Position numbers and translations under genes: made by a program
In this document: piece after piece, positions 880 to 41,959 of the stretch
How the letters are laid out: every line of letters begins with the position of its first letter
Position numbering within the stretch: the first letter of the stretch is position 1
Origin: a virus
Taxonomy: Duplodnaviria > Heunggongvirae > Uroviricota > Caudoviricetes
Reading direction: 5' to 3' (one strand)
DNA: 43,972 nt
Virus record (IMG/VR): IMGVR_UViG_2681813201_000019
Notes under the pieces: generated by a model
Databases searched by the model: none
The model's input: only the letters and a program-made list of their open reading frames with translations
What the model was told of the DNA's origin: nothing

Positions 880-1076
880 ACCAATGATCTGTGATTCGTG
901 AAAGCAGTTCGCAGAAAGATTTAATCTTTCTGCATCCACGGTTGCGTCAGATATTTCTCGCAATCCCGGAAAACTCCCGCCCTTCATCAGAATTGGGCGG
1001 GCTATACGATTCTCTCTTGACGATATTGTTGATTGGGAAAATGCACATCGTCAAAACAAACTTAAAGGTGATATAA

Positions 1077-1715: not shown

Positions 1716-1718
1716 TTC

Positions 1719-1755
1719 ATTATGCCGGGGGGGACGAACTCCCGGCATTTTTTCG
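1719..1755 (+). terminator. Putative rho-independent terminator
   Basis: GC-rich inverted repeat (tgccggg...cccggca) followed by a T-run, directly after the 1077..1715 stop. Confidence 0.45.
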
Positions 1756-1764
1756 GAGTTAACT

Positions 1765-4320: not shown

Positions 4321-4738
4321 AACGCTGAACATCCTTATCCCAGGACTTTTTATGGCGTTTGATGAACGGAACATAGGTCTGGTGAAAAAACTCACTAAGT
4401 GTTGGCATCGCACGATAATTATCGCGTTCTGCTTTAGGGTCATTTCCCAGTGCAATCGCCTCCTTGTGACGACGAGCTATCTGACGGGCTGTCCCCACAT
4501 CGATTTCAGGGAATCTGCCAATACTGATACTTTTTTTGGTACCGTGGAATGTGTAGCGCAGGAGGAAACGTTTGTTACCCGTTCGACCTGAGAGACATTT
4601 GAGGCCTATGACCTCGGTATCTGATACCTCAAGCTCTGTAGATCGGGTATCTGTGTTTGCCGGAAGGGCTTTGATGGATGAATTGGTGAATCGGAAGGAT
4701 TTTTGCATATTTATCCTCATGTATCTGATTGATATCAT
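4160..4738 (-). pseudogene. P4-type integrase N-terminal fragment (arm-binding and N-terminal domains only, catalytic domain missing)
   Basis: N-terminal region resembles the P4-like integrase arm-binding/SAM-like domain (LLRYTFHGTKKSISIGRFPEIDVGTARQIARRHKEAIALGNDP... FTQYIEPRLGKIRYCDLRAREIQQVLFDML); sequence then degenerates and the ORF runs into the convergent 3' end of the polymerase gene; no R..HxxR..Y domain. Confidence 0.55.
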
Positions 4739-4788
4739 GAAAATAATATATATCTGAAGGTGTTTTTATTACGGGGCAGGATTGAAGA

Positions 4789-5529
4789 ATGGAAAAGCTA
4801 TTAGACGCGTACAAACGGATATTGCAGGAAGTTAACGCCCAGTCATTTAACCTGAATGAGGATAAATACTCAGGCGTCTTTTTACCCGTGCCGTTTGAAG
4901 AATACTGGCATTCACCGATAAAAATCATGCTGGTTGGACGTGAAACCGCAGGCTGGAATACGCTGAATGGTAAGAATACGATATCACGGGTGTTGGGACT
5001 TATACCTGACGTCACCATCGGGCAAGTGGTTGAAGAAGCTGTAGATCGTTACAGGAAACATCTTCCGGTACAAAATTATGGCACCGCCAACCTCAAATCA
5101 CGTAGCCGCTTCACGCAATATCATTTCAGGCTGGCCCGGGAGCTTAATATTCTTCCCCAGGCAATCGTGTATGCCAATCTACTGGCGTGGGATTACGACG
5201 GACTGACCCCTCTCAATCGCCCTCAAAATGAAGTGCAGGAAGTCATATTAGCCTCGCTGAAGCTACTGGCGGTACAAATTAAACACCTTGAGCCTGATTT
5301 CATCATCTTTGCATCTGGAGCCCGGAGAACAGACTACATCATAAAACAGGTGCTTACTGAGCTAGGCGGCTATGAGACTTCTTCAGTCATTCCGGGGAAG
5401 CTGTGGGAGTTCAAAACAGGTAATACAATCTGTTTCAGAATTGCCCATCCAAGGGCTATGCGCGGACACCAGAAGTACAGAGATGAGGTGATTGCACGAA
5501 TTAAGCAACTTTGTACTCAGGGTGGCTAG
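4789..5529 (+). CDS. Uracil-DNA-glycosylase-like protein (family-4-like)
   Basis: N-terminal IMLVGRETAGW resembles the UDG GE(A/G)PG motif region and C-terminal FRIAHPRAMRGH resembles the HPS motif region; assignment by motif resemblance only. Confidence 0.45.
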   Translation: MEKLLDAYKRILQEVNAQSFNLNEDKYSGVFLPVPFEEYWHSPIKIMLVGRETAGWNTLNGKNTISRVLGLIPDVTIGQVVEEAVDRYRKHLPVQNYGTANLKSRSRFTQYHFRLARELNILPQAIVYANLLAWDYDGLTPLNRPQNEVQEVILASLKLLAVQIKHLEPDFIIFASGARRTDYIIKQVLTELGGYETSSVIPGKLWEFKTGNTICFRIAHPRAMRGHQKYRDEVIARIKQLCTQGG

Positions 5530-5932: not shown

Positions 5933-6934
5933 TTACCCTCTATTGTCAAAAGGGTTCAATTCAACAGCAGCCTCTAAATGACCTGGAGCAAAATGCGCAT
6001 AACGCATAGTCATTTTTATATCGCTATGCCCCAGTATTTTTTGCAACACAAGAATATTTCCGCCCCGCATCATAAAATGACTGGCAAACGTGTGACGTAG
6101 CACATGAGTTAATTGCCCATCAGGAAGCTCGATCTTCGCTCTCTTAATTGCAGCGTCAAAAGCCTCATAACATGGTGAAAATAGCGCTCCTCGTTTTTTG
6201 GGAAGCATAGCCTGCAATTGAGGTGAAATCGGTACAGTGCGGTTCTTCTTTCCTTTAGTTTTAACAAATGTGATTCGACCGGGCAGTACTTGAGATTGCT
6301 TTAATCCTTCTGCTTCACTCCACCGAGCACCAGTCGCAAGCCCAATACGGACAACAACCCCCAAATCTTTATTCCGTGACTCATCACACGCAATCAGAAG
6401 GCGTTCAATCTCATCTACATACAGAAACGCCAGTTCCTTTTCTTCCTCACGAAACTTGCGAATACCAGTCAGGGGGTTTTCACCAGACCACTCCCCAAGG
6501 CGCTTCAGTTCGGCAAAAACAGCATGTAGATATGACTGCTCGCGATTAACGGTTGCTTCACTAAGTTTTTTCTTCCCCTTGGGATTCCATTCTCCTGATA
6601 GCCTTCTTTCCCGATAAGTGGCAAACATATTTTTGTCAAACTGAGAAGCAAATGGATCTCCCAGCCTGGAACAAATCGCCTCAAGTTTGACTTTGCGCTC
6701 TGCACCAGAGGACAAGGTTTTACCGTACATCTCAAACCAACGAGCAATCAACTCAGAAAGACGAGGACCAGAACCATCTTGAAACTCGTCTCCAACTCTA
6801 CTATTCATTAAACGGCGCTCATAAGAGAGCGCCTCACTTTTTGTCGCAAACTGTTTACGAATGCGTTTTCCCGATGCCCCGTAGGGATAACATTCGCAAA
6901 GCCATTTACCTGATGGAATCTTACGAACCGACAT
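5933..6934 (-). CDS. int: Phage integrase (P2 Int family tyrosine recombinase)
   Basis: 333 aa; TGARWSEAEGLK, ITFVKTKGKKNRTVPIS and THVLRHTFASHFMMRGGNILVLQKILGHSDIKMTMRYAHF closely resemble P2 Int; lies about 100 bp from the att repeat. Confidence 0.9.
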   Translation of the reverse strand: MSVRKIPSGKWLCECYPYGASGKRIRKQFATKSEALSYERRLMNSRVGDEFQDGSGPRLSELIARWFEMYGKTLSSGAERKVKLEAICSRLGDPFASQFDKNMFATYRERRLSGEWNPKGKKKLSEATVNREQSYLHAVFAELKRLGEWSGENPLTGIRKFREEEKELAFLYVDEIERLLIACDESRNKDLGVVVRIGLATGARWSEAEGLKQSQVLPGRITFVKTKGKKNRTVPISPQLQAMLPKKRGALFSPCYEAFDAAIKRAKIELPDGQLTHVLRHTFASHFMMRGGNILVLQKILGHSDIKMTMRYAHFAPGHLEAAVELNPFDNRG

Positions 6935-11212: not shown

Positions 11213-11534
11213 GAAACCAGAACATGCACACACAAAAAAACCGCTTGCCATGCCTCAATCGGTCAGGTTACATTTCCGCTGCACCTCATAAAACGGGCGC
11301 CGGGATTCTCAACCCGATACAGAGCAAAGCGCATAACCGCGCAAGCGGTTTTTTTGTGCGTACTGTATTGCCACGTCTTTTTCGCGTCAGAATTATGGCG
11401 GGGCGTACGGGGCCGACTTCGGTCGGGCCGGATTCTTTGCTCTCCGGTGTTGAGAACCCTGTACGTCTCGCCACCCCGAGATTCTCAACTCTGGATGGTG
11501 AGTTATTTCTATCACCGAGCAAAGAGGCCACACC

Positions 11535-15108: not shown

Positions 15109-16068
15109 ATGAAAATTTGTATCGATGACGGCTCCACCAACATCAAGCTGGCATGGACTGAGAACGGCGAACGCCGCAACGCCATCAGCCCGAACAGCTT
15201 CAAGTCGGAATGGTCTGCGCCGTTCGGTGGCACGCAGCCCGCGAACTACATGCTTGATGGCGTGCGCTATGGTTTTGATCCGGTCAGCGATCGCTTTGTC
15301 CAGACGACCGACACGCAATACCAGTACAGCGATGTGAATGTCATTGCCATTCATCACGCGCTGGTCAAATCAGGCATCACACCACAGGAAGTGGATGTGG
15401 TTGTCACCCTGCCACTGAGCGAATATTTCGACACAAACGCACAGCCGGACATGGCCAACATCAACCGCAAAAAAGCAAACGTCATGCGCCCGGTGGCGTA
15501 CCAGAACGGAAAAGCATTCACTATCCGTAACGTACGGGTTATGCCTGAATCCATTCCGGCTGGTTTTAAAGCACTGGCTGACATGAGTCCGTTTGAATCC
15601 CTGCTGATTGTGGATTTAGGCGGAACCACGCTGGATGTGGCAAAGGTTCAGGGACAACTGGCAGGTATCAGCCAGGTGTTTTGCGATCCACACGTAGGCG
15701 TTTCCCTGATGGCCGATGCCGTACTGTCGGTGATGGCCACTAACGGTATGCGTACCAGTCACCACATCGCCAATACCATTATCGAACATCGCCATGATGA
15801 AGCCTGGCTGCGCCAGCACATCCACAATGACGCGCATTACGACAGCCTGATAGCGGTTATTCGTGAAAAGGAAGAAACACTGAAACAACGCGTGATCCGC
15901 GCGCTGGCGGGTTTTTCGGGTTACGGGCGGGTGATGGTTGTCGGTGGCGGGGCGGAGATTGTGGCACCCGCTATCCGCGAAGCCTGCGGAGTTAATGCGA
16001 CTTTCATCGCGGACGGGGTGCCACAGTTTGCTCTGGTTAATGGGCTGTACGCAATGGACAAGGAGTAA
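15109..16068 (+). CDS. parM: ParM/StbA-like actin-family segregation ATPase
   Basis: 319 aa; N-terminus MKICIDDGSTNIKLAW against R1 ParM MLVFIDDGSTNIKLQW, and similarity continues along the length (YSDVNVIAIHHAL, RRKANVMRPV, LLIVDLGGTTLDV, MVVGGGAE, LVNGLY). Confidence 0.85.
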   Translation: MKICIDDGSTNIKLAWTENGERRNAISPNSFKSEWSAPFGGTQPANYMLDGVRYGFDPVSDRFVQTTDTQYQYSDVNVIAIHHALVKSGITPQEVDVVVTLPLSEYFDTNAQPDMANINRKKANVMRPVAYQNGKAFTIRNVRVMPESIPAGFKALADMSPFESLLIVDLGGTTLDVAKVQGQLAGISQVFCDPHVGVSLMADAVLSVMATNGMRTSHHIANTIIEHRHDEAWLRQHIHNDAHYDSLIAVIREKEETLKQRVIRALAGFSGYGRVMVVGGGAEIVAPAIREACGVNATFIADGVPQFALVNGLYAMDKE

Positions 16069-16072
16069 ACCA

Positions 16073-16384
16073 ATGACGACACCAACCAGACGGATAAGTT
16101 TCTATCTGAAGCCCGCCGCCGTCAAGAACGAAGGCAAAGCATGCGCCTGGCTGGACAGCCTTACACCAGAAGCCCGCAAAAGTGGTCAACGTGTGGCTTT
16201 TCTGGCCGGACTGGCACTTATGAAAATTAATCCGGCAGAGGCTTACCGACTGGCTGCATGGGCTGACGATGAAGCGTTATCCCTGACACAAACCAGGACA
16301 GAACGCCCCGTGTCACAGCCAGCACCAACCGCACAGATAACCAGTCAGATGGCCGGAAATATCCGGGCGTTATTTCCCGAATAA
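16073..16384 (+). CDS. parR: ParR-like centromere-binding protein
   Basis: 103 aa from the internal ATG with AAGGAG Shine-Dalgarno; RRISFYLKP...ACAWLDSL...AFLAGLAL...NIRALFPE parallels R1 ParR (RRTIAFKLNP...VCDTLDSI...AALTAGLAL...ILRSLFPKE). Confidence 0.7.
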   Translation: MTTPTRRISFYLKPAAVKNEGKACAWLDSLTPEARKSGQRVAFLAGLALMKINPAEAYRLAAWADDEALSLTQTRTERPVSQPAPTAQITSQMAGNIRALFPE

Positions 16385-29823: not shown

Positions 29824-31974
29824 ATGAGTACCACAACACGAAAATTTAAAACCATTATCACTGATACTGGTGCCAAAAAATTAGCTCAGGCAGCCGCGCC
29901 AGGTGGTAATCCTGTCCGCCTGACTCACATGGCCGTGGGCGACGGTGGCGGCACGTTGCCCACACCAGACAGTAAGCAGACCCGTCTGGTGCATGAGGTG
30001 TGGCGACATACTGTTAATCGCGTCATCCTGGACGCAACACATCAGAACCGCATTATTGCGGAGCTGGTTATTCCTCCTGAAACGGGCGGATTCTGGATCC
30101 GGGAAATTGGTGTATTTGATGAGCACGGCGATTTGATCGCGGTGGGCAATACTGCCGAAAGTTACAAGCCAGCCGTTGCCAAAGGATCCGGACGTGCACA
30201 AACATTTCGCACCATTCTGACCGTATCCAGCACTGCCACCGTGGCGCTTACCGTGGATAACACCATGGTTATGGCCACAGTGGATTACGTGAATGACAAA
30301 CTGAAAGAACATGAACAGTCACGACGTCACCCGGACGCCTCGCTGACCGCAAAAGGCTTTGTTCAACTCAGTAGCGCCACCAACAGCACGTCTGAAGCAC
30401 TGGCCGCAACGCCGAAAGCGGTCAAGGCAGCCTATGACCTTGCTAACGGGAAATATACCGCACAGGACGCCACTACAGCGCGAAAAGGTCTTGTCCAGCT
30501 CAGTAGTGCCACCAACAGCACGTCTGAAACGCTCGCCGCAACACCAAAAGCGGTAAAGGCCGCGTATGATCTTGCTAACGCAAAATATACCGCTCAGGAC
30601 GCCACGACGGCACAAAAAGGGATTGTCCAGCTCAGTAGTGCCACCAACAGCACGTCTGAAACACTGGCCGCGACATCGAAAGCGGTTAAGGCAGTAATGG
30701 ATGAAACAAATAAGAAAGCCCCATTAAACAGCCCGGCGCTGACCGGAACGCCAACAACACCAACTGCGCGACAGGGAACGAATAATACCCAAATCGCAAG
30801 CACGGCTTTCGTTATGGCTGCGATTGCCGCCCTTGTAGATTCGTCACCTGATGCACTGAACACGCTGAACGAGCTGGCTGCGGCGCTGGGCAACGACCCG
30901 AATTTTGCGACCACCATGACTAACGCGCTTGCGGGTAAGCAACCGAAAGATGCCACCCTGACGGCGCTGGCCGGGCTTGCTACTGCGGCAGACAGGTTTC
31001 CGTATTTTACGGGGAATGATGTCGCCAGCCTGGCAACTCTGACAAAAGTCGGGCGGGATATTCTTGCGAAATCGACCGTTGCCGCCGTTATCGAATACCT
31101 CGGTTTACAGGAAACGGTAAACAGGGCTGGTAACGCCGTGCAAAAAAATGGCGATACCTTGTCCGGTGGGCTTACTTTTGAAAATGACTCAATCCTTGCC
31201 TGGATTCGAAATACTGACTGGGCGAAGATTGGATTTAAAAATGATGCCGATGGTGACACTGATTCATACATGTGGTTTGAAACAGGCGACAACGGCAATG
31301 AATATTTCAAATGGAGAAGCCGCCAGAGCACCACAACAAAAGACCTGATGACGCTGAAATGGGATGCACTAAATATTCTTGTTAATGCTGTCATTAATGG
31401 CAGTCTTGGAGTTGGTTCGACGAATGCGTTAGGTGGTAGCTCTATTGTTCTTGGTGATAATGACACCGGATTTAAACAGAATGGAGACGGTATTCTGGAT
31501 GTTTATGCTAATAGTCAGCGTGTATTCCGCTTTCAGAATGGAGTGGCTATTGCTTTTAAAAATATTCAGGCCGGGGATGGTAAAAAATTCACGCTATCCA
31601 GCTCCAACAACTCCACAAAGAATGCAATGTTTAATTTATGGGGTGCTTCAACCCGTCCAGTAGTTGCAGAGTTAGGCGATGAGGCAGGATGGCATTTCTA
31701 TAGCCAGCGAAATACAGATAACTCGGTAATATTTTCTGTTAACGGTCAGATACAGCCCAGCAACTGGGGGAATTTTGATTCACGCTATGTAAAAGATGTT
31801 CGCCTGGGTACGCGTGTTGTTCAATTGATGGCGCGTGGTGGTCGTTATGAAAAAGCCGGACACGCAATTACCGGATTAAGAATCATTGGTGAAGTAGATG
31901 GCGATGATGAAGCCATCTTCAGACCAATACAAAAATACATCAATGGCACATGGTATAACGTCGCACAGGTGTAA
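29824..31974 (+). CDS. H: Tail fibre protein (gpH): constant N-terminal part plus invertible C-terminal part
   Basis: 716 aa; N-terminus MSTTTRKFKTIITDTGAKKLA...MAVGDGGG...HEVWRH parallels P2 gpH; three tandem copies of a roughly 44-aa repeat (KGxVQLSSATNSTSExLAAT(P/S)KAVKA...) at aa 177-295. Confidence 0.85.
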   Translation: MSTTTRKFKTIITDTGAKKLAQAAAPGGNPVRLTHMAVGDGGGTLPTPDSKQTRLVHEVWRHTVNRVILDATHQNRIIAELVIPPETGGFWIREIGVFDEHGDLIAVGNTAESYKPAVAKGSGRAQTFRTILTVSSTATVALTVDNTMVMATVDYVNDKLKEHEQSRRHPDASLTAKGFVQLSSATNSTSEALAATPKAVKAAYDLANGKYTAQDATTARKGLVQLSSATNSTSETLAATPKAVKAAYDLANAKYTAQDATTAQKGIVQLSSATNSTSETLAATSKAVKAVMDETNKKAPLNSPALTGTPTTPTARQGTNNTQIASTAFVMAAIAALVDSSPDALNTLNELAAALGNDPNFATTMTNALAGKQPKDATLTALAGLATAADRFPYFTGNDVASLATLTKVGRDILAKSTVAAVIEYLGLQETVNRAGNAVQKNGDTLSGGLTFENDSILAWIRNTDWAKIGFKNDADGDTDSYMWFETGDNGNEYFKWRSRQSTTTKDLMTLKWDALNILVNAVINGSLGVGSTNALGGSSIVLGDNDTGFKQNGDGILDVYANSQRVFRFQNGVAIAFKNIQAGDGKKFTLSSSNNSTKNAMFNLWGASTRPVVAELGDEAGWHFYSQRNTDNSVIFSVNGQIQPSNWGNFDSRYVKDVRLGTRVVQLMARGGRYEKAGHAITGLRIIGEVDGDDEAIFRPIQKYINGTWYNVAQV
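31088..31113. other. gix/hix-like recombination site (left boundary of the invertible segment), inside gpH at codons 422-430
   Basis: TTATCGAATACCTCGGTTTACAGGAA; inverted partner at 33766..33791; the core ACCTCGGTTTAC resembles the Mu gix site (TTCCTGTAAACCGAGGTTTTGGATAA, as recalled). Confidence 0.6.
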
Positions 31975-31977
31975 ATT

Positions 31978-32505
31978 ATGCAGCATTTAAAAAATATTAA
32001 GTCCGGAAATCCAAAAACAAAAGAACAATATCAGCTAACAAAGAATTTTGATGTTATCTGGTTATGGTCCGAAGACGGTAAAAACTGGTATGAGGAAGTA
32101 AATAACTTTCAGGACGACACCATAAAGATTGTATACGACGAAAATAATATTATTGTTGCCATAACCAAAGATGCCTCAACGCTTAATCCCGAAGGCTTTA
32201 GTGTCGTTGAGATTCCAGATATAACAGCCAATCGTCGTGCCGATGATTCAGGGAAGTGGATGTTTAAGGACGGAACTGTGGTTAAGCGGATTTATACAGC
32301 AGACGAACAGCAACAACAGGCCGAATCACAAAAGGTCGCGTTGCTTTCTGAAGCTGAAAGCGTTATTCAGCCACTGGAACGCGCTGTCAGGCTGAATATG
32401 GCGACGGATGAGGAACGCACACGACTGGAGTCATGGGAACGCTACAGCGTTCTGGTCAGCCGTGTGGATACAGCAAATCCCGAATGGCCACAAAAGCCTG
32501 AGTAA
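31978..32505 (+). CDS. G: Tail fibre assembly chaperone (gpG), currently in the expressed orientation
   Basis: 175 aa; [21 protein letters not shown]...; paired with the tail-fibre C-terminus. Confidence 0.85.
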
Positions 32506-32510
32506 AAATT

Positions 32511-32530
32511 AAGGCCCGATATCGGGCCTT
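32511..32530. terminator. Palindromic hairpin between the convergent G and G' genes (possible bidirectional terminator)
   Basis: aaggcccgatatcgggcctt. Confidence 0.4.
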
Positions 32531-32533
32531 CTC

Positions 32534-33067
32534 TCATTCTGGTTGTTCGGGAAACGTTACTGGCAGGCTGGAGGTGTCTGTAGATTCGACTTTCTGCGCA
32601 AAGAGCATCCACTCGGTTAATTTCTGCTTATTCTCGTCGGAAATGATGCCCAGCCGTAGCTGTGAGTCCCATAGCTGGGTTTTATCCCTGACAAGTTGCA
32701 ACAGGCTTTGCTTTTCATTTTCCGCTTGTTGTCTCTGCTCTTCCTCGGTATAAGTTCGCTTTATCACTACGCCATCTTTGAACATCCATTTCCCCGAAAT
32801 ATCAGCCCGGCGATTTGCTGTAATATCAGGTAATTCAACGACGCTTGCGCCTTCCGGATTAATTGCTGAAACATCCTTTTCAATACAAATAATAACGCCG
32901 TTATGGTCATAGACCATTTTCAAAGTGTCTGGCTGGAAATTCTTTTGTTCCTCATACCAGTTTTTTCCATCATCTGAATAAAGCCATTTGATGTTAAATT
33001 GCTTTGTTAGCTGGTATTGCTCTTTTGTTTTAGGGTTGCCAGCAGTAATGTTTTTTAAGTGCATCAT
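32534..33067 (-). CDS. Alternative tail fibre assembly chaperone (G'), inverted orientation
   Basis: 177 aa; [24 protein letters not shown]... is a paralogue of gpG on the opposite strand inside the invertible segment. Confidence 0.8.
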   Translation of the reverse strand: MMHLKNITAGNPKTKEQYQLTKQFNIKWLYSDDGKNWYEEQKNFQPDTLKMVYDHNGVIICIEKDVSAINPEGASVVELPDITANRRADISGKWMFKDGVVIKRTYTEEEQRQQAENEKQSLLQLVRDKTQLWDSQLRLGIISDENKQKLTEWMLFAQKVESTDTSSLPVTFPEQPE

Positions 33068-33069
33068 CG

Positions 33070-33780
33070 TTAAATACTCCCCGCGTTATACCACGTCCCA
33101 TTAATGCAATACTGAATTGGCCTTGCCTGTGTTGTATCAATTAATTCATCACGGTTTCCGTTAACTGAACCCGTAACGACATAACCTGACCTGTCAGACC
33201 AGCCGGGACCATTCCATGTCTGAACAGATGACAGACCGCCAAGGCGAATACCTGTAATAAACCTTGAGTTACATTCTGCCTGCGTATATGCACCAACATC
33301 TCCCGCTGAAGGTTTTCGTGTCGTGGTATAGAAATCTGACCAACCTAATTCAAACCCATAACCATCACGAGCCGACCTGTAGGAAATGCCACCATTTTTA
33401 TAATTCACACGGAATTGTACGGCAGGACAGCTACCAGCATTTATATTAAAGTGAAGAATTAATACAGATGCACCACCAATCAGGGCGTTATATGCACCAC
33501 TATCCCAATTCCATCCAACGGATGTATCACCATTAACAGTATTACCTGTTTGTCGGAGTGCAAATGCATTGACATTTTTGGCACTAATTGAAATATCGCT
33601 AGAACCATCAAAACCAACTCCAGCAATTTTTCGTGCTGTTTTCAGCTTTGTTGCAGTAGCGGCATTGCCGGACAGTTCCCCAGAAAGGCCACCGCTGAAT
33701 GTTTGTCGATTGGTCCAGGTATTCGCTGTACTGAGTAACGGTATTTTCTCCCCGCTTGTGCCGAGTTCTCGTAAACCGAG
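33070..33780 (-). CDS. Alternative tail-fibre C-terminal cassette with no start codon (would fuse to the gpH constant region after inversion)
   Basis: Reading the minus strand from the gix-like site gives an open frame of about 232 codons (LGLRELGTSGEKIPLL...INGTWYNAGSI) in phase with the gpH crossover codons; ends with the same INGTWYN motif as the current gpH C-terminus. Confidence 0.6.
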   Translation of the reverse strand, partial: LGLRELGTSGEKIPLLSTANTWTNRQTFSGGLSGELSGNAATATKLKTARKIAGVGFDGSSDISISAKNVNAFALRQTGNTVNGDTSVGWNWDSGAYNALIGGASVLILHFNINAGSCPAVQFRVNYKNGGISYRSARDGYGFELGWSDFYTTTRKPSAGDVGAYTQAECNSRFITGIRLGGLSSVQTWNGPGWSDRSGYVVTGSVNGNRDELIDTTQARPIQYCINGTWYNAGSI

Positions 33781-33791
33781 GTTTTAAATAA
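33766..33791. other. gix/hix-like recombination site (right boundary of the invertible segment)
   Basis: TTCTCGTAAACCGAGGTTTTAAATAA, inverted relative to 31088..31113 and just upstream of the invertase gene. Confidence 0.6.
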
Positions 33792-33827
33792 TGGCCGTTT
33801 CTGGCCTGCATGGCATGATTTGCGCTT

Positions 33828-34445
33828 TTGGACGGGAGATTCAGTGTGCTGATTGGCTATGTAAGGGTATCAACAAATGACCAGAATACAGACCTGCAAC
33901 GAAACGCTCTTGTTTGTGCAGGATGTGAACAAATATTTGAAGATAAATTAAGCGGGACAAAGACAGACCGACCGGGATTAAAACGCGCTTTAAAGCGCCT
34001 TCAAAAAGGTGACACGCTGGTTGTCTGGAAACTGGATCGCCTCGGGCGAAGCATGAAACATCTGATTTCTCTCGTCGGGGAACTACGGGAGCGAGGGATT
34101 AATTTTCGCAGTCTGACCGACAGCATAGACACATCTTCTCCAATGGGGCGTTTTTTCTTCCACGTGATGGGTGCCCTGGCTGAAATGGAACGTGAATTAA
34201 TTGTTGAACGTACACTGGCCGGGCTGGCGGCAGCGCGCGCAAGGGGGCGCACAGGCGGACGTCGACCGAAGCTGACAAAAGAACAGCATGAGCAAATAGC
34301 AAGGCTAATCAAAAACGGGCACGACAGAAAACAACTGGCAATAATTTACGGCATTGGCACATCGACGATTTATCGTTATCACCCTGTAGGCGATATACAG
34401 ACTGAAGAAACAACCGGGCAGACTCAGGAAAATGAAAACCGCTAA
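33828..34445 (+). CDS. Serine DNA invertase (Gin/Hin/Cin/Pin family)
   Basis: LIGYVRVSTNDQNTDLQRNAL...GDTLVVWKLDRLGRS... and a C-terminal HTH; the true start may be the internal GTG (VLIGY...) 18 nt downstream. Confidence 0.9.
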   Translation: MDGRFSVLIGYVRVSTNDQNTDLQRNALVCAGCEQIFEDKLSGTKTDRPGLKRALKRLQKGDTLVVWKLDRLGRSMKHLISLVGELRERGINFRSLTDSIDTSSPMGRFFFHVMGALAEMERELIVERTLAGLAAARARGRTGGRRPKLTKEQHEQIARLIKNGHDRKQLAIIYGIGTSTIYRYHPVGDIQTEETTGQTQENENR

Positions 34446-34468
34446 TCTGACCATTAGCGGTTTTTGTG
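34439..34468. terminator. Hairpin plus T-run after the invertase gene (between convergent invertase and gpU)
   Basis: ccgctaatctgaccattagcgg followed by tttttg. Confidence 0.45.
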
Positions 34469-34473
34469 TTAAA

Positions 34474-34968
34474 TCAGAACAGCCCTTTAACTGAACTGGC
34501 CGCGCTGTTAAGAGATGATGTCACCTTATCTTTGAATCCGGACAGCATATCACTGAACGATGAGGATTGCAGGCGCTCCCGCAAATCCTCATCACAGCGT
34601 TCAAGAGTCAGTGAAAATTCTATCTTTTTCGCCTTACCGTAGCGATCAAACTCGGAGCGGGTCGTATTCGTTTCAGTCAGGACATACATGCCGTAAATCT
34701 GCCCGACGCCATCAATCAAAGGCCAGGGTCGTCCTGTATACGCCTGCGTGGTCAGCAGCGACAGCGACACTTCGCCACCTGTAATTTCAGGATAAAGCAC
34801 ACCAGAAAGAACGATGCGATCATCACCTGCACCGATATACTGCCAGCTTGCTGAACGGTTAACGCGTTCATTTTTCACATGCCGCCAGCTTTTGTTTTGC
34901 TGTAACTGCTGATGCGGCAGCGTGCGCAGCTCAAAAACAAACATGCCGTAGATCATCATCATGGCCAT
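34474..34968 (-). CDS. U: Tail protein U (gpU)
   Basis: RSWRHVKN.RVNRS...IGAGDD...LSGVLYPEITGG...GRPWPLIDGVG parallels P2 gpU. Confidence 0.85.
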   Translation of the reverse strand: MAMMMIYGMFVFELRTLPHQQLQQNKSWRHVKNERVNRSASWQYIGAGDDRIVLSGVLYPEITGGEVSLSLLTTQAYTGRPWPLIDGVGQIYGMYVLTETNTTRSEFDRYGKAKKIEFSLTLERCDEDLRERLQSSSFSDMLSGFKDKVTSSLNSAASSVKGLF

Positions 34969-34974
34969 GACTCC

Positions 34975-37818
34975 TCAATCTTTATCGTAAAAACTGCCAC
35001 GCCCGGCACGGGCGCGCCGTTCCATTTCTGCCCTGACCATTTCACCGACCAGTTTCGCCAGTTCGCGGGGATTCTGCGTAACAACGTTATGCAGATGAAC
35101 ATGAATTTCACCACCAAATCCGGAGGCAACAGGCTCCCGGTTACGGGAAGTTACAGGAACTGATGCCACTGGAGATCGTATAGCCTCCGCCACCGGGCGG
35201 GAGCTGGCCGCAACAACAGGGACCAGCGCCGGAGGCAGCGGAGCCGGGACCACGGGTGTGATATTAATTGCGGGGGCAGGCTTACTGACCTGCGCAATCT
35301 TCCGCTCCTGCCACTCCCCACGAACAGCAAGTGCTCGGGGCAGGTTTTTAAAGACAATATCGCCGGGGCCAATGCGTTTTTTCGTCTCCTCAACCAGCTT
35401 ACCTGTGTTATCAGCAATTTTGCTGAGTCTGCGCAGCGTACCGGTATTGCTGTCTGTGAGCGGTTTATTGTCTTTGGGGTTATCACCTCCGGTGCCATTG
35501 CCATTTTCCACAGGCTTCGGCGGATTGATTTTCGCCAGGTCCCCCTGAAGCAAGGCAACCTTGTCCTGAAGAATGGCCGCACGCTGTGCGTCTTCGATTT
35601 TCTTGCGCGCCCTTTCCGCTTCATCCGGAAGCACACCAAGCTTTTCAAGTATCCACGCCAGCGTATCCAGCAACATTTTTGCAGGTGTCAGAACAAGTTG
35701 TAACGCACCGCCAAGAACGTTACCGAATATCTCGCCAGCACTGGTACATTTATCCAGAGTTTCCTTGCTGGACTCCATCGGTGACAGCAGCGATTTAAAC
35801 CAGTTAAACACCTGGCTGATCCCACTCCCGATTGCGTCAAAAACAGGACCAAACCGTTCAAAGGTTTCGCGCAACGGGGTCAGCCTTTCCATAATCCCGC
35901 TGAACACCCAGGCAAAAAATGCCCTGATGGGATCCCAGTATTTCCAGATAAGAACGGCAGCTCCGGCAAGCGCAGCCACGATAAGACCAACCGGACTGAA
36001 CAACGCCCCGATAGCGCCTCCCAGTAAAGAAACGGAACCCGTCACCATTCCCCATAGTGCTGGCAGAACCCTGACAGCATTCATTGATCCGGTCAGGAGG
36101 GAAAAACCAAGACGCAGTTTTGCCAGCGGGCCAGCAAGCACACCAATAGCCAGCGACAACGAGCCAACCGTTGCAGTCATTGCCAGCAGTGCACCGCCTG
36201 CAATCAGTAGCTGGCGCGTCAGTGCGGGATGGGCCTGCGCCAGCGCCGTCACCTTTGATACCACACGCGTGAGCCACTGCGTGACAGAACGCAGCGGACC
36301 GTCAATCAGATCTGCAATGCGGATGCGCAACCCTTCCCATGCACTGCTGAGTGATTTCAGATCGCCGTCAAGGTTGTTGGCCATAACCTTTGCCGTGCGT
36401 TCAGCCTCACCGCGCGCGCCTTCAAGTTCTTTTCTCAGTTTGGGTAAGGAGCCGTCACCTGCCGCATCAACGAGGGCCATAAATGATGTGAAAGCCTCTT
36501 CTCCGGCAATGTCCTTAAAGAACGATACCCGGTCAACTTCCCCGTATTTGCGGGTAGCTTTATAAAGGTCAGCCAGCACATCCTCCATCGGGCGCATTTT
36601 GCCCCCGGCATCCGAGACAGACACGCCAAGCTCTTTCAGCGCCTCTGCTGCCGCCTTTGGCGGTGATGCCAGACGAGCCAGGCTGGCACGCATTGCCGTA
36701 CCAGCATCACTCCCCCTGATACCCATATTCGCCAGCACGCCCGCCATCGCTGCGGCCTGCTCCAGCGATATTCCCAGCTTACCCGCCACCGGACCTGCAT
36801 ATTTCATGGTTTCACCCAGTGCGCGAAGGTCAGTGTTGGTACGGGTAAACGCTGCGGTGAGTGTGTCGCCGACCCGGTCCATCTGGTCAGCAGAAAGACC
36901 GAACTGCGTCAGAATATTTGAGCCAATATCCGCCGTCTCACCGAGGTCCATACCGCCAGCCGTTGCCATGCTCAGTACGCCAGGGAGCGCAGCCTGAATG
37001 GCCTGTGGTGTAAAGCCAGCCATTGCAAGAAATGCCTGTCCACTGGCGGCATCGCCTGCGGTGAACTGCGTTTCAGAGCCAAGTTTTAACGCCTGCTCAC
37101 GCAGCGCCTTAAACTGCGGGCTGTTCTGGTCGATTCGCGTCAGTGCCTGAACGCGGGACATCTCTTTGCCGAACCCGATCGCAGGCTGCAAAAAACGCCC
37201 GGCAGCATAGCCGCCCGCCGCTGCCGCACCAATTGCCAGCGCACCACCTGTTTTCAGTTTTCCCGCTGTTTCCTGCGCGCGCGAATACCGCTCACGCGCC
37301 CGTGTTACACGCGCAAGCGCCTGCCGTTCGCGTTCAAGCTGGTTGTTGTACTGTTCGGTGCGTCTGATGGCCTGCTGGATGGTGTTATCGCTGCCTGTCA
37401 GGGAAATGCCGTGGCGTTTCAGCTCTCCGCCAAGCTCCCGCATTTTCTGAATTTCCCGTGTGCGCGATTCATTCAGGCGTTCAAGCCGGGTGCTTAACTG
37501 CTGCATCAGCTTTTGTTGTTTTTCGCTGAGCACTGTACCCGTGCGTTGTAACTGATTAAGGGCGTTAAGCTGGCGTCGTGCTTTCACGATGCCCGCATCC
37601 GCTTTACTGACAGCGTCACGGGCGCGCTCAAATGATCGCGCCTGACGCTCGAGATTTTTGATCGCCCCCTGCGTTCGCTGGATGGAGTCACCAAACTGCC
37701 CCATCAGGCGGCGGGCGTTTTCGGCAGGCCGGGTCAGCCTGTCAACGGCGCTGAAAGCGACCCGGATATCAAGAGTCTTCATTGTCTGCATTCCCGCTAC
37801 GAAGTGCCGCCCGCTCAC
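34975..37818 (-). CDS. T: Tail tape measure protein (gpT)
   Basis: 947 aa, coiled-coil and Ala/Gly-rich central region; lies between E/E' and U. Confidence 0.85.
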   Translation of the reverse strand: MSGRHFVAGMQTMKTLDIRVAFSAVDRLTRPAENARRLMGQFGDSIQRTQGAIKNLERQARSFERARDAVSKADAGIVKARRQLNALNQLQRTGTVLSEKQQKLMQQLSTRLERLNESRTREIQKMRELGGELKRHGISLTGSDNTIQQAIRRTEQYNNQLERERQALARVTRARERYSRAQETAGKLKTGGALAIGAAAAGGYAAGRFLQPAIGFGKEMSRVQALTRIDQNSPQFKALREQALKLGSETQFTAGDAASGQAFLAMAGFTPQAIQAALPGVLSMATAGGMDLGETADIGSNILTQFGLSADQMDRVGDTLTAAFTRTNTDLRALGETMKYAGPVAGKLGISLEQAAAMAGVLANMGIRGSDAGTAMRASLARLASPPKAAAEALKELGVSVSDAGGKMRPMEDVLADLYKATRKYGEVDRVSFFKDIAGEEAFTSFMALVDAAGDGSLPKLRKELEGARGEAERTAKVMANNLDGDLKSLSSAWEGLRIRIADLIDGPLRSVTQWLTRVVSKVTALAQAHPALTRQLLIAGGALLAMTATVGSLSLAIGVLAGPLAKLRLGFSLLTGSMNAVRVLPALWGMVTGSVSLLGGAIGALFSPVGLIVAALAGAAVLIWKYWDPIRAFFAWVFSGIMERLTPLRETFERFGPVFDAIGSGISQVFNWFKSLLSPMESSKETLDKCTSAGEIFGNVLGGALQLVLTPAKMLLDTLAWILEKLGVLPDEAERARKKIEDAQRAAILQDKVALLQGDLAKINPPKPVENGNGTGGDNPKDNKPLTDSNTGTLRRLSKIADNTGKLVEETKKRIGPGDIVFKNLPRALAVRGEWQERKIAQVSKPAPAINITPVVPAPLPPALVPVVAASSRPVAEAIRSPVASVPVTSRNREPVASGFGGEIHVHLHNVVTQNPRELAKLVGEMVRAEMERRARAGRGSFYDKD

Positions 37819-38005
37819 GCCAGCTAACCACTTCGCCGGGCGTCATCATGAAGATTTCGGCGGGCGACCAGTTAAAAATGGCGGCAATATCCGCCACCAG
37901 ATCTTCGATGTGCTCAAAGCACACCAGGGTGATTACGCTGCCGTCTCCTGCACGCTCTTCGCGCCAGAGTCTGGCTCGCTCATAAAATTTACAGCCACAG
38001 CGCAC
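37769..38005 (-). CDS. E' frame: extension of the tail assembly chaperone reached by a -1 frameshift (E+E' fusion)
   Basis: Open -1 frame overlapping the 3' part of E and the start of T, as in the P2 E/E' arrangement; an A7 run (about 38031..38037) and a TTTT slip site lie just upstream in the E frame. Confidence 0.4.
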   Translation of the reverse strand: MRCGCKFYERARLWREERAGDGSVITLVCFEHIEDLVADIAAIFNWSPAEIFMMTPGEVVSWRERAALRSGNADNEDS

Positions 38006-38307
38006 AACTGAATAAAATCGCGTGACGACATTTTTTTAATCATCACTTCATCCAGTCGTGGCGAGGTCACGCGAGGCAACAGCGTGAACATGGTATCCGC
38101 TTTCAGATTCAGCACATCAGACAGCGACAGACCACGCAGGGATCCAGCCTGCTCAATAGCCCCGGTGATCTCCACATACGTGATTTTTTCGCCACCACGC
38201 TCAATTGGTCGGGTCAGTTTTACGCCACGTTCGACAGCCATATCCTCAACTGCCGTCACATTATCCGCCACGGTGTTATTCCGGGTTTCAGTATCGATGT
38301 CTTTCAT
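37933..38307 (-). CDS. E: Tail assembly chaperone (gpE)
   Basis: 124-aa ORF between the tail tube and tape measure genes. Confidence 0.7.
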   Translation of the reverse strand: MKDIDTETRNNTVADNVTAVEDMAVERGVKLTRPIERGGEKITYVEITGAIEQAGSLRGLSLSDVLNLKADTMFTLLPRVTSPRLDEVMIKKMSSRDFIQLCAVAVNFMSEPDSGAKSVQETAA

Positions 38308-38362
38308 CTGTTGTCTCCTTTTCAGTCAGAGGCGACGCACTGCGCCGCCAGCATATTACTTA

Positions 38363-38875
38363 TCAGCCAAGCCCAAGCGCGGAACGGATGCGATCGGGCA
38401 CAATGTCCTTGCCGTCCTTCCGGTAAATGAAGTTCAGCAGGTCAATCTCCCACAACGGGCGATCGTTAACACTCAGCTTGTAGTAGGTGTTTTTAATGGC
38501 GTAAGTGTGTGATGTGGCTTCGCCCTGTTTGGCTTCCCCCATATCAATTTCCGTCACACGTCCGCGCATTTCGACTTCATACAGGTCGCTTTCTGCATCG
38601 GTGTAGTATTCACCCGCAAAACGCAGCAGCGTGCCGTCAATCGTGCCGCCATACTTAAGGAACAGCTCACGAACTGCGCCCCCCATGACAAAGCTCGCAT
38701 CAAGCGCGGAGTCGTCCAGACCGAGATCAATACTTACCGCACCCATCATGCCACCACCCCGGTAGCTGTCGGTTTTGCGCGTCAGCTTAGGCAGAGTGAC
38801 GGACGTCACCTTACCCACTTCGTTTTCACCATCCACAAACAGCGTAAAAAAGCGAAGATGTTTTGGCACAGCCAT
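38363..38875 (-). CDS. FII: Tail tube protein (gpFII)
   Basis: 170 aa, immediately downstream of the sheath gene. Confidence 0.85.
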   Translation of the reverse strand: MAVPKHLRFFTLFVDGENEVGKVTSVTLPKLTRKTDSYRGGGMMGAVSIDLGLDDSALDASFVMGGAVRELFLKYGGTIDGTLLRFAGEYYTDAESDLYEVEMRGRVTEIDMGEAKQGEATSHTYAIKNTYYKLSVNDRPLWEIDLLNFIYRKDGKDIVPDRIRSALGLG

Positions 38876-40059
38876 CAGGCACCTCCCAGCACCGCAAATG
38901 CGGGTTCAAAGTATTCATCAGTAAACGTCTGGTAAAGCTCCATGTCTTCCAGTGGCGGAACGGGCGTATATTTGTAGCGAATACGCACACGTCCCTGACG
39001 TAAATCCGTGGTGCTGTTATCCACCACGTCATACCAGCACTCCGCGCCAATCAGTTTCCCGGCAGTCACCAGTGAATCCAGTTTTGCCCTGATGGCACTG
39101 ATAACATCCTTCACATTCGCAGGCGTCAGTGGACTGTCGATGGTTTCAAACTGCGCTTCCGCAATTGAATCAGCCAGCACCTGTGCGGTTCGGGTATACA
39201 CCTCAAAGATGTAGGCGTTCGTTTCCGGTGTGCGGTTACCCCAGAAGCGGAACCCGTTGCGACGAATAATGGTCGTGATTTCTTTGTTGTTGAGGCTGTT
39301 GGCATCGCTGTCTTCGGCCTGCAACGACCAGAACACATGCCTGGACATTCCCAGCACATTTTTAACCGGAACGTTGGACAGCGATTTGTGCCAGCCCTGC
39401 TCATGGTCAATGTACGCACGAAGGCCGCACGCATAAGCAGGCGCGGGGAACGTTTCGTTTTTGCCACTTTTCGGGTTGTAGGCGATGAAGTCAGGCCATA
39501 AGAGCATCACCTCACGTTCGTTGAATTTCTGGCGGTAGGTAATCGCCTCAGCCATCGTGTTACAACCATGACATGTGGCATACACAAACGCGCGCAGTTT
39601 ACCTGCAATCACGCACAGGGATTTTGTTACCGCCTCCGTGTCCAGCTCCGGCGCGGCCAGAATACGCGGACGGTATCCGATGCTTTCATCCTGCTCTGCA
39701 ACAAGCAGCGCATACATCCCCGTATAGCTGCCGTCATCCTCAGAACCACCGATAACCAGTTGATCCTGCGTCTTTCCGTCTTCTTCTTTGTGTTCAGCCA
39801 CGCGAACGACGATCACCTTTGTGCTCACCTGGTCTGCGATGGCCTTAAGCGCACGATAAAGCGTCCCCGTTGTTCCGCATTTTCCCAGCACGTCATTGAC
39901 GCGGGTCAGCAGTGTGGGCTTGTTCAGCGGGAACAGCTCCGCGTCCGCATCATCCGCCGTTGCCACGATACCGATAACGCTGGAATCAACATCGTTAATC
40001 GCTGTTACCAGGTCGGTATTTTCCGTAACACGGGCACCATGAAAACGAGTTTCACTCAT
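38875..40059 (-). CDS. FI: Tail sheath protein (gpFI)
   Basis: 394 aa, contractile-tail sheath in size and position. Confidence 0.85.
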   Translation of the reverse strand: MSETRFHGARVTENTDLVTAINDVDSSVIGIVATADDADAELFPLNKPTLLTRVNDVLGKCGTTGTLYRALKAIADQVSTKVIVVRVAEHKEEDGKTQDQLVIGGSEDDGSYTGMYALLVAEQDESIGYRPRILAAPELDTEAVTKSLCVIAGKLRAFVYATCHGCNTMAEAITYRQKFNEREVMLLWPDFIAYNPKSGKNETFPAPAYACGLRAYIDHEQGWHKSLSNVPVKNVLGMSRHVFWSLQAEDSDANSLNNKEITTIIRRNGFRFWGNRTPETNAYIFEVYTRTAQVLADSIAEAQFETIDSPLTPANVKDVISAIRAKLDSLVTAGKLIGAECWYDVVDNSTTDLRQGRVRIRYKYTPVPPLEDMELYQTFTDEYFEPAFAVLGGA

Positions 40060-40216: not shown

Positions 40217-41326
40217 ATGACCGACACCACCATGCAATTGCTCAGCCAGGGCACAGACCCCGTAAAAATGCCGGATTTTGATATTCTCGCGGAGGGTAAA
40301 ACGCTGTCCGGCGTGGCAGAGCGCCTGATGAGCCTGTCGCTGACCGACAACCGGGGATTTGAGGCAGACCAGCTCACCATCACGCTGGATGATGCGGATG
40401 GTCAGTTGCAGCTACCGCCACGGGGCGCGCGCCTGACGGTTCTCATTGGCTGGAAAGGCGAACCGCTGACAGAAAAAGGGTCTTACATTGTTGATGAAAT
40501 CGCACACGAAGGACCGCCGGACAGGCTGACTGTTTCAGCCAGAAGCGCAGATTTCCGGGATGAATTTAACGTTAAACGTGAGGTGTCCTGGCATGATGTG
40601 ACCGTTGAGCGTGTGGTATCCGCCATCGCTCATCGGTACGGTCTGAAACCGCAAATCAGCGAAATGCTGATGGATATCGAAATCGACCACGCCGACCAGA
40701 CCGAAGAAAGTGACATGTCCTTCCTTACGCGCATGGCGGAAATGCTGGGCGCAATCACTACGGTAAAAAGCGGTAATCTGTTATTCATCATGCCCGGTGG
40801 TGGCGTGAACGCACAGGGCCAGCCGTTGCCATCGTTCGCCATCACGCGCAGCAGCGGCGATCGCCATCAGTTCCGCATTGCTGACCGCGAGGCGTATACG
40901 GGGGTACGCGCCTACTGGCTTGATCTTAATTACGGGAAAAAGAAAAAAGTCAGCGTGAAACGCCGCAAACCGCCAAAACCGAAAAAAGAGAAAAGCAGCA
41001 GCCGTGAAGGTGATTATATGGAAGGCGCGGAAGGCAATGTGTTTGTGTTACGCAAGACTTATCAGAACGAGCAGGCAGCAAGACGCGCAGCGGCGGCAAA
41101 GTGGCAACAACTACAACGCGGAGCCGCATCATTCTCCATCACGCTGGCACGTGGACGAGCAGAACTCTACCCCGAAATGCATGGCACGGTAACAGGATTT
41201 AAAAGCGAGATTGATAATCAGGACTGGATTATTGCAAAAGCCGAGCACACCATTGATAACAGCGGCTTTACCACGCAGCTTGAGCTTGAGGCAAAAATCC
41301 CGGAATGGATAGCGGAAACAGAGTGA
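40217..41326 (+). CDS. D: Tail protein D (gpD); start at internal ATG (MTDTTMQLL...)
   Basis: About 370 aa, P2 gpD-like, upstream of ogr; the ORF-track start at 40085 lies inside the divergent promoter region. Confidence 0.8.
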   Translation: MTDTTMQLLSQGTDPVKMPDFDILAEGKTLSGVAERLMSLSLTDNRGFEADQLTITLDDADGQLQLPPRGARLTVLIGWKGEPLTEKGSYIVDEIAHEGPPDRLTVSARSADFRDEFNVKREVSWHDVTVERVVSAIAHRYGLKPQISEMLMDIEIDHADQTEESDMSFLTRMAEMLGAITTVKSGNLLFIMPGGGVNAQGQPLPSFAITRSSGDRHQFRIADREAYTGVRAYWLDLNYGKKKKVSVKRRKPPKPKKEKSSSREGDYMEGAEGNVFVLRKTYQNEQAARRAAAAKWQQLQRGAASFSITLARGRAELYPEMHGTVTGFKSEIDNQDWIIAKAEHTIDNSGFTTQLELEAKIPEWIAETE

Positions 41327-41368
41327 GCAACTTAGAATAGCGGCAGCACCACGTTAAAGGAGGTCGCT

Positions 41369-41629
41369 ATGTTCCGTTGTCCGCTTTGTGGCGCATCTGC
41401 CCGTATCCGCACCAGTCGTCCGGAAAATGATTCAAACACCGTGCGGCAAAAGTATTACCAGTGTAACAACCTGGAATGCGGCGTATGCTTCTCAACACTG
41501 GAAGCTTTCCATAAATTCACATCGAAACACGCCTCCGGCGTTCACTCATCAGAAGGTATCCCGTGGCATGAGCTGCCAGCTTCACACAGGGGAAACAATC
41601 AGATGAGTTTGCCTTTACCTCAGAATTAA
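41369..41629 (+). CDS. ogr: Ogr/Delta-family zinc-finger late transcription activator
   Basis: MFRCPLCGASARIRTSR...YYQCNNLECGVCF parallels P2 Ogr (MFHCPLCQHAAHARTSR...YHQCQNVNCSATF). Confidence 0.85.
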   Translation: MFRCPLCGASARIRTSRPENDSNTVRQKYYQCNNLECGVCFSTLEAFHKFTSKHASGVHSSEGIPWHELPASHRGNNQMSLPLPQN

Positions 41630-41818: not shown

Positions 41819-41959
41819 ATGTCGCAAAAATCGCTTACGGCCATCACGTTCTGCGTGACGGTAATCCTCATCATCTGGATGCTGCACGGTTCGCTGTGTG
41901 AAATACGGATGAGCTTCTGGGGAGCGGAGTTTGCGGCGTTCTTACAGTGTAAGCAGTAA
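41819..41959 (+). CDS. Hok/Gef-family type I toxin (46 aa)
   Basis: MSQKSLTAITFCVTVILIIWMLHGSLCEIRMSFWGAEFAAFLQCKQ has one transmembrane helix and the SLCEIR...AAF signature of Hok; a long structured leader lies upstream and a terminator downstream. Confidence 0.7.
   Translation: MSQKSLTAITFCVTVILIIWMLHGSLCEIRMSFWGAEFAAFLQCKQ

Follow-up and report, generated by a model that had tools for sequence, protein, structure and literature searches.

The stretch of DNA analysed here, hereafter the window, is 43,972 nt long and carries a prophage that, judging from its annotation, appears complete, from the integrase to ogr and with the full set of genes for head, tail and lysis. Its tail-fibre gene H starts with a constant N-terminal part (29824..31099, plus strand; codons 1 to ~425), an open reading frame common to both orientations described below, which encodes a tail-collar domain and three 44-aa fibre repeats (Pfam Phage_tail_fib and Phage_fiber_2 ×3). 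This part is now joined to a variable C-terminus of the P2-H type (31102..31974, plus strand), so that residues 427–716 of gpH are nearly identical to P2 gpH. The first ~110 residues of this tip past the crossover site are also Mu-S-like, with 47% identity to Mu S overall and a near-identical N-terminal block. The following gene encodes a tail-fibre assembly chaperone of 175 aa (31978..32505, plus strand; gpG/Mu U type), which matches Pfam Caudo_TAP (E 2.5e-36) and is annotated as a tail fiber assembly protein. A 290-aa open reading frame of the minus strand (30594-31466), located inside gpH, was discarded as antisense noise.

The next two coding pieces are read from the minus strand. The chaperone of this second cassette (32534..33067; 177 aa; Mu U' type) also belongs to Pfam Caudo_TAP and shares 97% identity with Mu U'. 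It is accompanied by a silent, start-less alternative C-terminus of the Mu S' type (33070-33783, minus strand; Pfam gp37_C), whose frame opens inside the right crossover site and whose last 165 residues are 89% identical to Mu S'. Of this frame, 33070..33777 is the part that an inversion would join to gpH. The 2.68-kb invertible segment is thus made of two convergent cassettes, each providing a fibre C-terminus and its own chaperone; these four coding pieces, including the two Caudo_TAP chaperones, bear out the opposed cassettes and second chaperone described in the initial annotation. Between the convergent chaperone genes lies a GC-rich hairpin (32511..32530; terminator-like match with 8 pairs, of which 6 GC), which is likely a terminator for whichever cassette is read, a function suggested by its sequence. 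Outside the segment, a Gin-family serine DNA invertase of 199 aa with a GTG start is encoded on the plus strand (33846..34445). A perfect palindrome with 12-bp arms (34435..34464), which is at the same time a terminator-like match, covers its stop codon and likely acts as a two-way terminator between the invertase gene and a convergent tail gene (34474-34962), again as judged from the sequence.

The segment is bordered by two 26-bp crossover sites of 12-2-12 bp architecture. The left one (gixL-like; 31088-31113, plus strand) reads TTATCGAATACC-TC-GGTTTACAGGAA, with its central TC at 31100-31101 and a single mismatch to the Mu gix consensus. The right one (gixR-like; 33766-33791) reads TTATTTAAAACC-TC-GGTTTACGAGAA on the minus strand, its central dinucleotide appearing as GA at 33778-33779 on the plus strand, and shows two mismatches to the same consensus. 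The central dinucleotide is TC in both sites, each on its own strand, and a dinucleotide common to the pair is what a Gin-type system calls for. The two sites are in inverted orientation, are complementary at 21 of their 26 positions and share an identical core of 12 bp. Scanning the whole 44-kb window with the Mu gix consensus, with up to 3 mismatches allowed, returned exactly these two matches, and 100 shuffles yielded 0 sites, with 0 expected by chance, in agreement with the inverted 26-bp gix-like sites initially proposed. No third crossover site was found in the window even with 3 mismatches allowed, and a multi-site shuffling system, such as a shufflon-like one or the three-repeat locus of EPEC, was ruled out on the basis of these two sites only. 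The left site begins within gpH codon 422 (V, starting at nt 31087), at its second base; this is the very codon that had been pointed out beforehand, and the site spans codons 422–430. A spacer of 54 nt separates the right site from the start of the invertase gene. At their outer positions the sites depart from Mu gix, and the kinetics could for this reason differ from those of Mu.

The consequences of an inversion were examined by flipping the segment in silico about the central dinucleotides. This operation produces an uninterrupted gpH of 661 aa, compared with 716 aa in the window orientation, which confirms the prediction that the start-less cassette is in phase with gpH. A 1986-nt H gene, the same as the product of the in-silico flip, is indeed annotated in genomes with the other orientation. 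The locus thus holds two alternative fibre C-termini, each with its chaperone, in frame with one constant N-terminus. The start-less frame is labelled by PGAP as a pseudogene 'missing N-terminus'; despite this RefSeq flag, the cassette is not a pseudogene, and two sequences, one of 716 and the other of 661 aa, are legitimate for the tail-fibre protein of the prophage.

Both orientations are found in nature, the evidence coming from public genome assemblies of other strains. Inverting the segment of the window gives the sequence of strain RM12581, with 0 differences over 9800 bp. Comparison of RM12581 with RM11626-C1, after in-silico inversion, leaves 2 SNPs over 9800 bp, both located outside the segment. 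In-silico inversion of one member makes UTI89 and NU14 identical along 9800 bp, and the same holds for 33F4 and 33E over the same length. Since these three near-identical E. coli pairs differ only by the inversion, apart from the 2 SNPs just mentioned, the segment does flip in nature, as expected from the invertible segment initially annotated. At a larger scale, the flipped junction was detected in 327 E. coli genomes and the window-type junction in 355.

Inverted repeats can mislead assemblers, and the two chaperone genes form an inverted repeat of 357 nt with 70% identity; the opposite orientations could thus in principle reflect assembly errors or RecA-dependent recombination between inverted repeats. 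The position of the breakpoints argues otherwise. They lie within the 12 bp shared by the two 26-bp sites rather than in the chaperone repeat, so an origin of the inversion by homologous recombination at this repeat was rejected. The exchange of half-sites in the flipped genomes is precisely the one predicted for a site-specific crossover. RecA cannot recombine efficiently over an identity of 12 bp, which is also much shorter than a sequencing read. The same event recurs in three lineages unrelated to one another, and hundreds of genomes show it. Moreover, an assembler picking one state of a mixed culture would itself imply switching. Artefact or RecA-dependent exchange is consequently regarded as extremely unlikely, and the DNA-flipping switch, exchanging the tail-fibre tip of a P2-family E. 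coli prophage, as real.

The enzyme encoded next to the segment has the features of a Gin-type invertase. Its frame is intact, with both a Resolvase (E 1.4e-50) and an HTH_7 domain (E 4e-13) recognized by Pfam, and its best PDB matches are the Gin structures 4m6f/3uj3. It shares 80% identity overall with Mu Gin, and 118 of its first 119 residues, which make up a Gin-like catalytic domain, are the same. Ser9, the catalytic nucleophile (PMC3575834), is present. The divergence from Gin is much greater in the C-terminal DNA-binding domain than in the catalytic one. The Gin-like nature of the invertase that had been proposed from the sequence alone, supported by the two domains and by the near-Gin residues 1–119, is thus retained. 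The gene most likely starts at GTG 33846 and not at TTG 33828; the former is favoured because it agrees with the Mu gin start and with the P88_4B11 and RefSeq annotations.

The recombinational enhancer is expected within the same gene. The general layout of such enhancers with Fis sites has been described (PMC3798978), and the Mu enhancer maps within gin (Kahmann 1985, as cited in PMC10434027). The first ~110 nt of the present gene are identical to Mu gin, with few differences over the next ~250 nt, and a Fis-dependent enhancer is presumed, by analogy, to be carried by this 5' part. A crude search for Fis motifs (G-N13-C with an AT-rich centre), covering the initial 200 nt of this gene, was non-discriminating, this motif occurring at 2.4/kb across the window; because of this high frequency, the enhancer placement rests on the identity to Mu gin. 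A similarly crude scan for a sigma-70-like promoter between the right site and the invertase start gave no match, which is uninformative because of the crudeness of the scan and because gin-type promoters are weak.

The divergence of the DNA-binding domain could suggest that the locus is a fossil, i.e., a segment from a Mu-like donor whose resident invertase is dead, the two orientations being produced in trans by other Din-family invertases, for example Pin of e14 or those of other prophages. Din-family enzymes can indeed act in trans, Gin, Cin, Hin and Pin being interchangeable, and several of them are often present in one E. coli genome. However, the invertase frame is uninterrupted, only 1 of 119 catalytic-domain residues differs from Gin, with the nucleophilic serine kept, and the HTH_7 score is well over threshold. 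The identical invertase protein (WP_000905061.1) is moreover found in all six of the genomes compared, and the 5' part of the gene, the enhancer stretch in Mu gin, is conserved. A dead invertase complemented in trans therefore appears quite improbable. The same divergence may be read in another way, the invertase being a natural chimera between a Gin catalytic domain and a different DNA-binding domain, co-evolved with the altered outer site positions and leading to a site preference distinct from that of Gin. It is also conceivable that the flip alters the sensitivity of the lysogen to other phages, as reported for PinQ and PinR of cryptic prophages. These last two readings, taken jointly, are given a slim chance, and the data can be explained without either of them.

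The best explanation, held with high confidence, is that the window contains a P88-like prophage of E. coli (genus Xuanwuvirus, P2 family) with a Mu-type G segment at its tail-fibre locus, which works as a two-state switch driven by the Gin-like invertase. According to this model, dimers of the invertase would bind both inverted gix-like sites, with the assistance of host Fis bound to the enhancer in the 5' end of the invertase gene. Cleavage would then occur at the central dinucleotides, and the 2.68-kb segment would be rotated by 180 degrees; we infer both the Fis and enhancer dependence and the cleavage at the central TC from the Mu system. Whatever the orientation, the constant part of gene H would be where transcription and translation begin. 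The window orientation completes H with the P2-type receptor-binding tip, its chaperone coming next, whereas the flipped one completes it in frame with the Mu-S'-type tip, and the U'-type chaperone comes next. Two kinds of virions differing in receptor specificity would thus be released by a lysogenic population. The tip swap probably changes the host range, by analogy with the systems from which the two tips are known, one being near-identical to P2 gpH and the other 89% identical to Mu S'.

A different beneficiary has to be considered, since adsorption of T2 is reported to be inhibited when PinQ/PinR invert tail-fibre DNA of cryptic prophages (PMC12529663; bioRxiv 10.1101/2025.03.28.646004). 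The flip could similarly be real and yet serve the lysogen, the product of one orientation altering the host surface or blocking superinfecting phages. The present prophage, however, appears complete, and P88 and phiSM, which are closely related to it, are inducible (PMC6456863), so an ordinary phage function suffices and a benefit restricted to the lysogen is considered very unlikely. Under the preferred two-state switch, the locus looks like a textbook bet-hedging device, one prophage producing two kinds of particles with different receptor-binding tips. Its importance here is mostly a matter of annotation, and it opens no new question. For such E. coli prophages, among them those of O145:H28 and of the UTI89 lineage, host-range prediction and phage typing should consider both states.

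The locus was compared with several known systems. The G region of Mu/D108 displays the same order of parts, namely the constant S/H part, gixL, Sv-U, U'-Sv', gixR and the invertase, with ~92% nucleotide identity over the aligned parts of the segment and invertase. In contrast to Mu, which is a transposable phage, the window phage is a P2-family myovirus, its constant part is that of P2 gpH and its expressed tip is of P2-H type past the first ~110 residues. The silent cassette is shorter than in Mu (237 versus 328 aa for the annotated reading frames), with a different proximal part. The invertase comprises 199 aa versus 193 in Mu Gin, with a diverged DNA-binding domain and tail, and the segment, at ~2.68 kb, is smaller than in Mu, whose record has the annotated G-segment boundaries ~3.06 kb apart.

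The canonical P2 H-G locus resembles the constant part, expressed tip and chaperone (89% nucleotide identity, and 83% protein identity for gpH overall, including an indel of one 44-aa repeat unit) and even has a gix-like sequence at the same place in H. P2 lacks, however, the second site, the alternative cassette and the invertase, G being followed by a terminator and Z/fun. The match with P2 is limited to 30052-32489 of the window, which sets the locus apart from the canonical P2 (Peduovirus) one. This single orphan gix-like site, the match restricted to the H/G part and the Z/fun genes downstream of G agree with the earlier remark that the switch is not part of canonical P2. A further comparison is offered by the P2-like prophages of EPEC E2348/69, where an invertase and inverted repeats give one fibre protein alternative C-termini, and where inversion was shown experimentally, with coexisting orientations detected by sequencing (Goldberg et al. 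2014, PMC4272514). One EPEC locus has three repeats and four variants, in contrast to the two sites and two states found here. Another publication also reports inversion in prophages of the P2-like type (bioRxiv 10.1101/2024.10.15.618418).

The closest relatives are found within Xuanwuvirus. P88 (NC_026014) matches only 60% of the region, at 92%, and thus carries other tip alleles; the paper on its host range makes no mention of inversion (PMC5285337). Xuanwuvirus P88_4B11 (NC_049391) shows 98.2% nucleotide identity over 4701 nt, for the tail-fibre/invertase region only, and its genes are annotated in an identical order, with tail fiber, two tail fiber assembly proteins, a short opposite-strand 'tail fiber protein' and DNA invertase. 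Citrobacter phage phiSM (OR565851) is 96.7% identical over the whole 4.7 kb, its invertase being 99.5% identical. Only allelic differences distinguish these last two phages from the window, and near-identity together with the same gene order assigns the prophage to the P88-like Xuanwuvirus on the basis of this region. The exact arrangement is already catalogued in this P2-family genus, in P88, P88_4B11 and phiSM, with the invertase and both chaperones annotated in the latter two. Since Mu and P88-like phages have had the same switch described and annotated before, the present one is an ordinary member of this group.

The stretch between 28.5 and 36.5 kb of the window was examined closely. A repeat search revealed a 30-nt inverted repeat (31084-31113 / 33766-33795), both arms of which, on direct reading, are 26-bp sites with a 12-2-12 layout. 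The left site, TTATCGAATACC-TC-GGTTTACAGGAA, lies at 31088-31113 on the + strand and the right one, TTATTTAAAACC-TC-GGTTTACGAGAA, at 33766-33791 on the opposite strand; the two agree at 21 of 26 positions. Throughout the whole 44-kb window, the Mu gix consensus (up to three mismatches) matches these two sites and nothing else, with 0 matches in 100 shuffles, and a 13-bp core used as query recovered the same pair. The left site starts within codon 422 of the tail-fibre protein gpH, and 54 nt separate the end of the right site from the invertase start. The initial annotation, which had placed inverted gix-like sites within gpH and upstream of an invertase, was thus correct in its coordinates.

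Gene H (29824-31974, + strand) encodes 716 residues, with a P2-type tail-collar N-terminus, three 44-aa fibre repeats and a long-tail-fibre trimerisation domain. Its C-terminal 290 codons, located between the sites, form the expressed tip and are followed on the same strand by the gene of a 175-aa Caudo_TAP chaperone (31978-32505). The silent tip is a start-less frame on the - strand, running from 33783 (inside the right site) to 33070, next to a second Caudo_TAP chaperone gene (177 aa, 32534-33067). A GC-rich hairpin (32511-32530) lies between the convergent chaperone genes. The alternative cassette had been described as being in phase with the gpH crossover codons, and this holds, since swapping in silico the DNA between the central dinucleotides yields an unbroken 661-aa gpH (...AAVIEYLGL/RELGTSGEK...). 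In the constant part of gpH, three tandem 132-nt copies (30351-30746; 100/84/66% identity) correspond to the 44-aa Phage_fiber_2 units. P2 gpH is one such unit short (a 44-aa alignment gap), and shaft length thus varies in whole repeats.

The ORF list puts the invertase start at TTG 33828; a GTG start at 33846, giving 199 aa, is favoured by the Mu gin alignment, the annotation of P88_4B11 (NC_049391, Xuanwuvirus) and RefSeq. The proposed Gin-like nature of this protein is borne out by its Resolvase and HTH_7 domains, its 80% overall identity to Mu Gin and its closest solved structures, two Gin entries (4m6f and 3uj3). Residues 1-119 show a single change relative to Gin (K39 for R39), and Ser9, the residue that becomes covalently linked to DNA (PMC3575834), is kept. 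Far greater divergence from Gin is found in the C-terminal DNA-binding part. A perfect palindrome with 12-nt arms (AAAACCGCTAAT / ATTAGCGGTTTT, 34435-34464) overlaps the invertase stop codon; placed between two convergent genes, the invertase and a tail gene, it probably acts as a terminator in both directions.

The segment is indeed found in both orientations. The predicted post-inversion junction, 400 nt either side of 31100, was searched in 5,426 complete E. coli genomes. Of these, 327 carry it over its full length, six at 100% identity, and 355 carry the window-type junction, a count that may include switch-less P2-like prophages. Three closely related strain pairs were then compared over 9.8 kb around the locus. 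Inverting the segment of the window gives the sequence of RM12581 (O145:H28), with 0 differences in 9800 bp, and RM11626-C1 has the window orientation with two positions different. UTI89 and NU14, as well as the Swiss farm isolates 33F4 and 33E, are identical over 9800 bp once one partner is inverted in silico. Recent flipping of the segment has thus occurred in three or more lineages, by this or another invertase. Where the segment is flipped, the left site is TTATCGAATACCTCGGTTTACGAGAA and the right one TTCCTGTAAACCGAGGTTTTAAATAA: half-sites are swapped within the 12-bp common core, as predicted for site-specific crossover. Together, these comparisons rule out recombination through the 357-nt chaperone repeat, and make assembly error unlikely as a source of both orientations.

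The locus most likely works as in Mu. For the steps beyond sequence anatomy and natural flipping, we infer from the Gin and Hin literature that invertase dimers would bind both sites and that a Fis-bound enhancer in the 5' end of the invertase gene would assemble the active tetramer. Double-strand cleavage at the central TC, 180-degree subunit rotation and religation would follow. The enhancer is probably retained, because the first ~110 nt of the invertase gene match Mu gin exactly (the next ~250 nt show a few differences) and the stimulatory site was mapped inside the invertase gene, in the account of Kahmann et al. 1985 cited in PMC10434027. For Hin, ~100 bp separate the enhancer from one of the sites, and each enhancer end holds a Fis dimer (PMC3798978); a Fis-motif scan of our sequence was non-specific. 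Expression would start from the constant part of H, within the late operon. The segment requires no separate promoter, and transcription would end at the central hairpin, beyond the active chaperone gene. A host-range change upon inversion may be expected from the identity of the tips.

Nothing of substance is new in this switch; the initial annotation is accurate in its description, yet the case is ordinary. Coexisting orientations were shown in tail-fibre loci of EPEC P2-like prophages (Goldberg et al. 2014, PMC4272514). According to a 2024 preprint, a DNA invertase and inversion of the neighbouring genes are frequent in the Z/fun hotspot of P2-like phages (10.1101/2024.10.15.618418), and tail-fibre genes are a recognised target class of programmed inversion (PMC9881135). 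The switch goes unmentioned in the P88 host-range paper, a gap of that paper and not of the field. The main practical value of the locus concerns annotation, since RefSeq labels the silent cassette a pseudogene. In either orientation, RefSeq/PGAP either flags it as pseudogenic ('incomplete; missing N-terminus') or lets a shorter protein begin at an internal start codon, at 33070-33780 of the window and at the equivalent positions in other compared sequences with this locus (L003-L006, L009, L010); a 112-aa 'tail fiber protein' is called there in the P88_4B11 record. Such calls are an annotation artefact of invertible cassettes.

The surrounding P2-family prophage looks complete, from the integrase (5933-6934) to ogr (41369-41629), and adjoins pgsA and tRNA genes for Leu, Cys and Gly. 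The genes for sheath, tube and tape measure, together with the gpE and gpU-like genes (34474-40059), are on the - strand, opposite to V-W-J-I-H-G; D and ogr are on the + strand (40217-41629). In P2, these genes are generally described as running in one direction; here, the invertase thus stands at a convergent junction. P88_4B11 has the same opposed layout. Adjacent Rfam matches to isrK (11281-11355, 58 bits) and C4 antisense RNA (11391-11478, 78 bits), both above gathering score, occupy an unannotated gap of the early region and suggest a P1/P7-type antisense immunity or anti-repressor control module. ParM/ParR-like plasmid segregation genes (15109-16384) and, just past ogr at the right end, a Hok/Gef toxin gene (41819-41959) were also observed. 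Beside the prophage integrase, the left flank (1-5529) resembles what is left of another integrated element: it holds an IS3 transposase, hypothetical genes, an 851-aa 'DNA-directed DNA polymerase' and a pseudogene of a truncated integrase Arm domain.

Among relatives, P88_4B11 is 98.2% identical over all 4701 nt of the region, with the same genes annotated, 'DNA invertase' included, and Citrobacter phage phiSM is 96.7% identical. The Mu and D108 G regions share ~92% identity with the segment and invertase, and the order is also that of the Mu record, where S, U, U', S', the G-segment boundaries and gin are annotated. Identity to Mu U' is 97% for the silent chaperone, and over its last 165 aa the silent tip reaches 89% identity to Mu S'. 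From residue 427 onward, the expressed tip nearly matches P2 gpH right to its end; Mu S is close to it only over the first ~110 aa. By these identities, the P2-type shaft carries a P2-type tip in one state and a Mu G(-)-type tip in the other. In P2, Wphi and relatives, matches are confined to the H-G part. The switch is absent from canonical P2, as had been stated: the P2 sequence (L008, 2405-2430) carries in H a lone gix-like site, TTATCGAATATCTCGGTTTACAGGAA, with two mismatches to the consensus, at the position homologous to the left site, without partner site or invertase, and with Z/fun after G. P2 resembles one half of such a switch in a frozen state.
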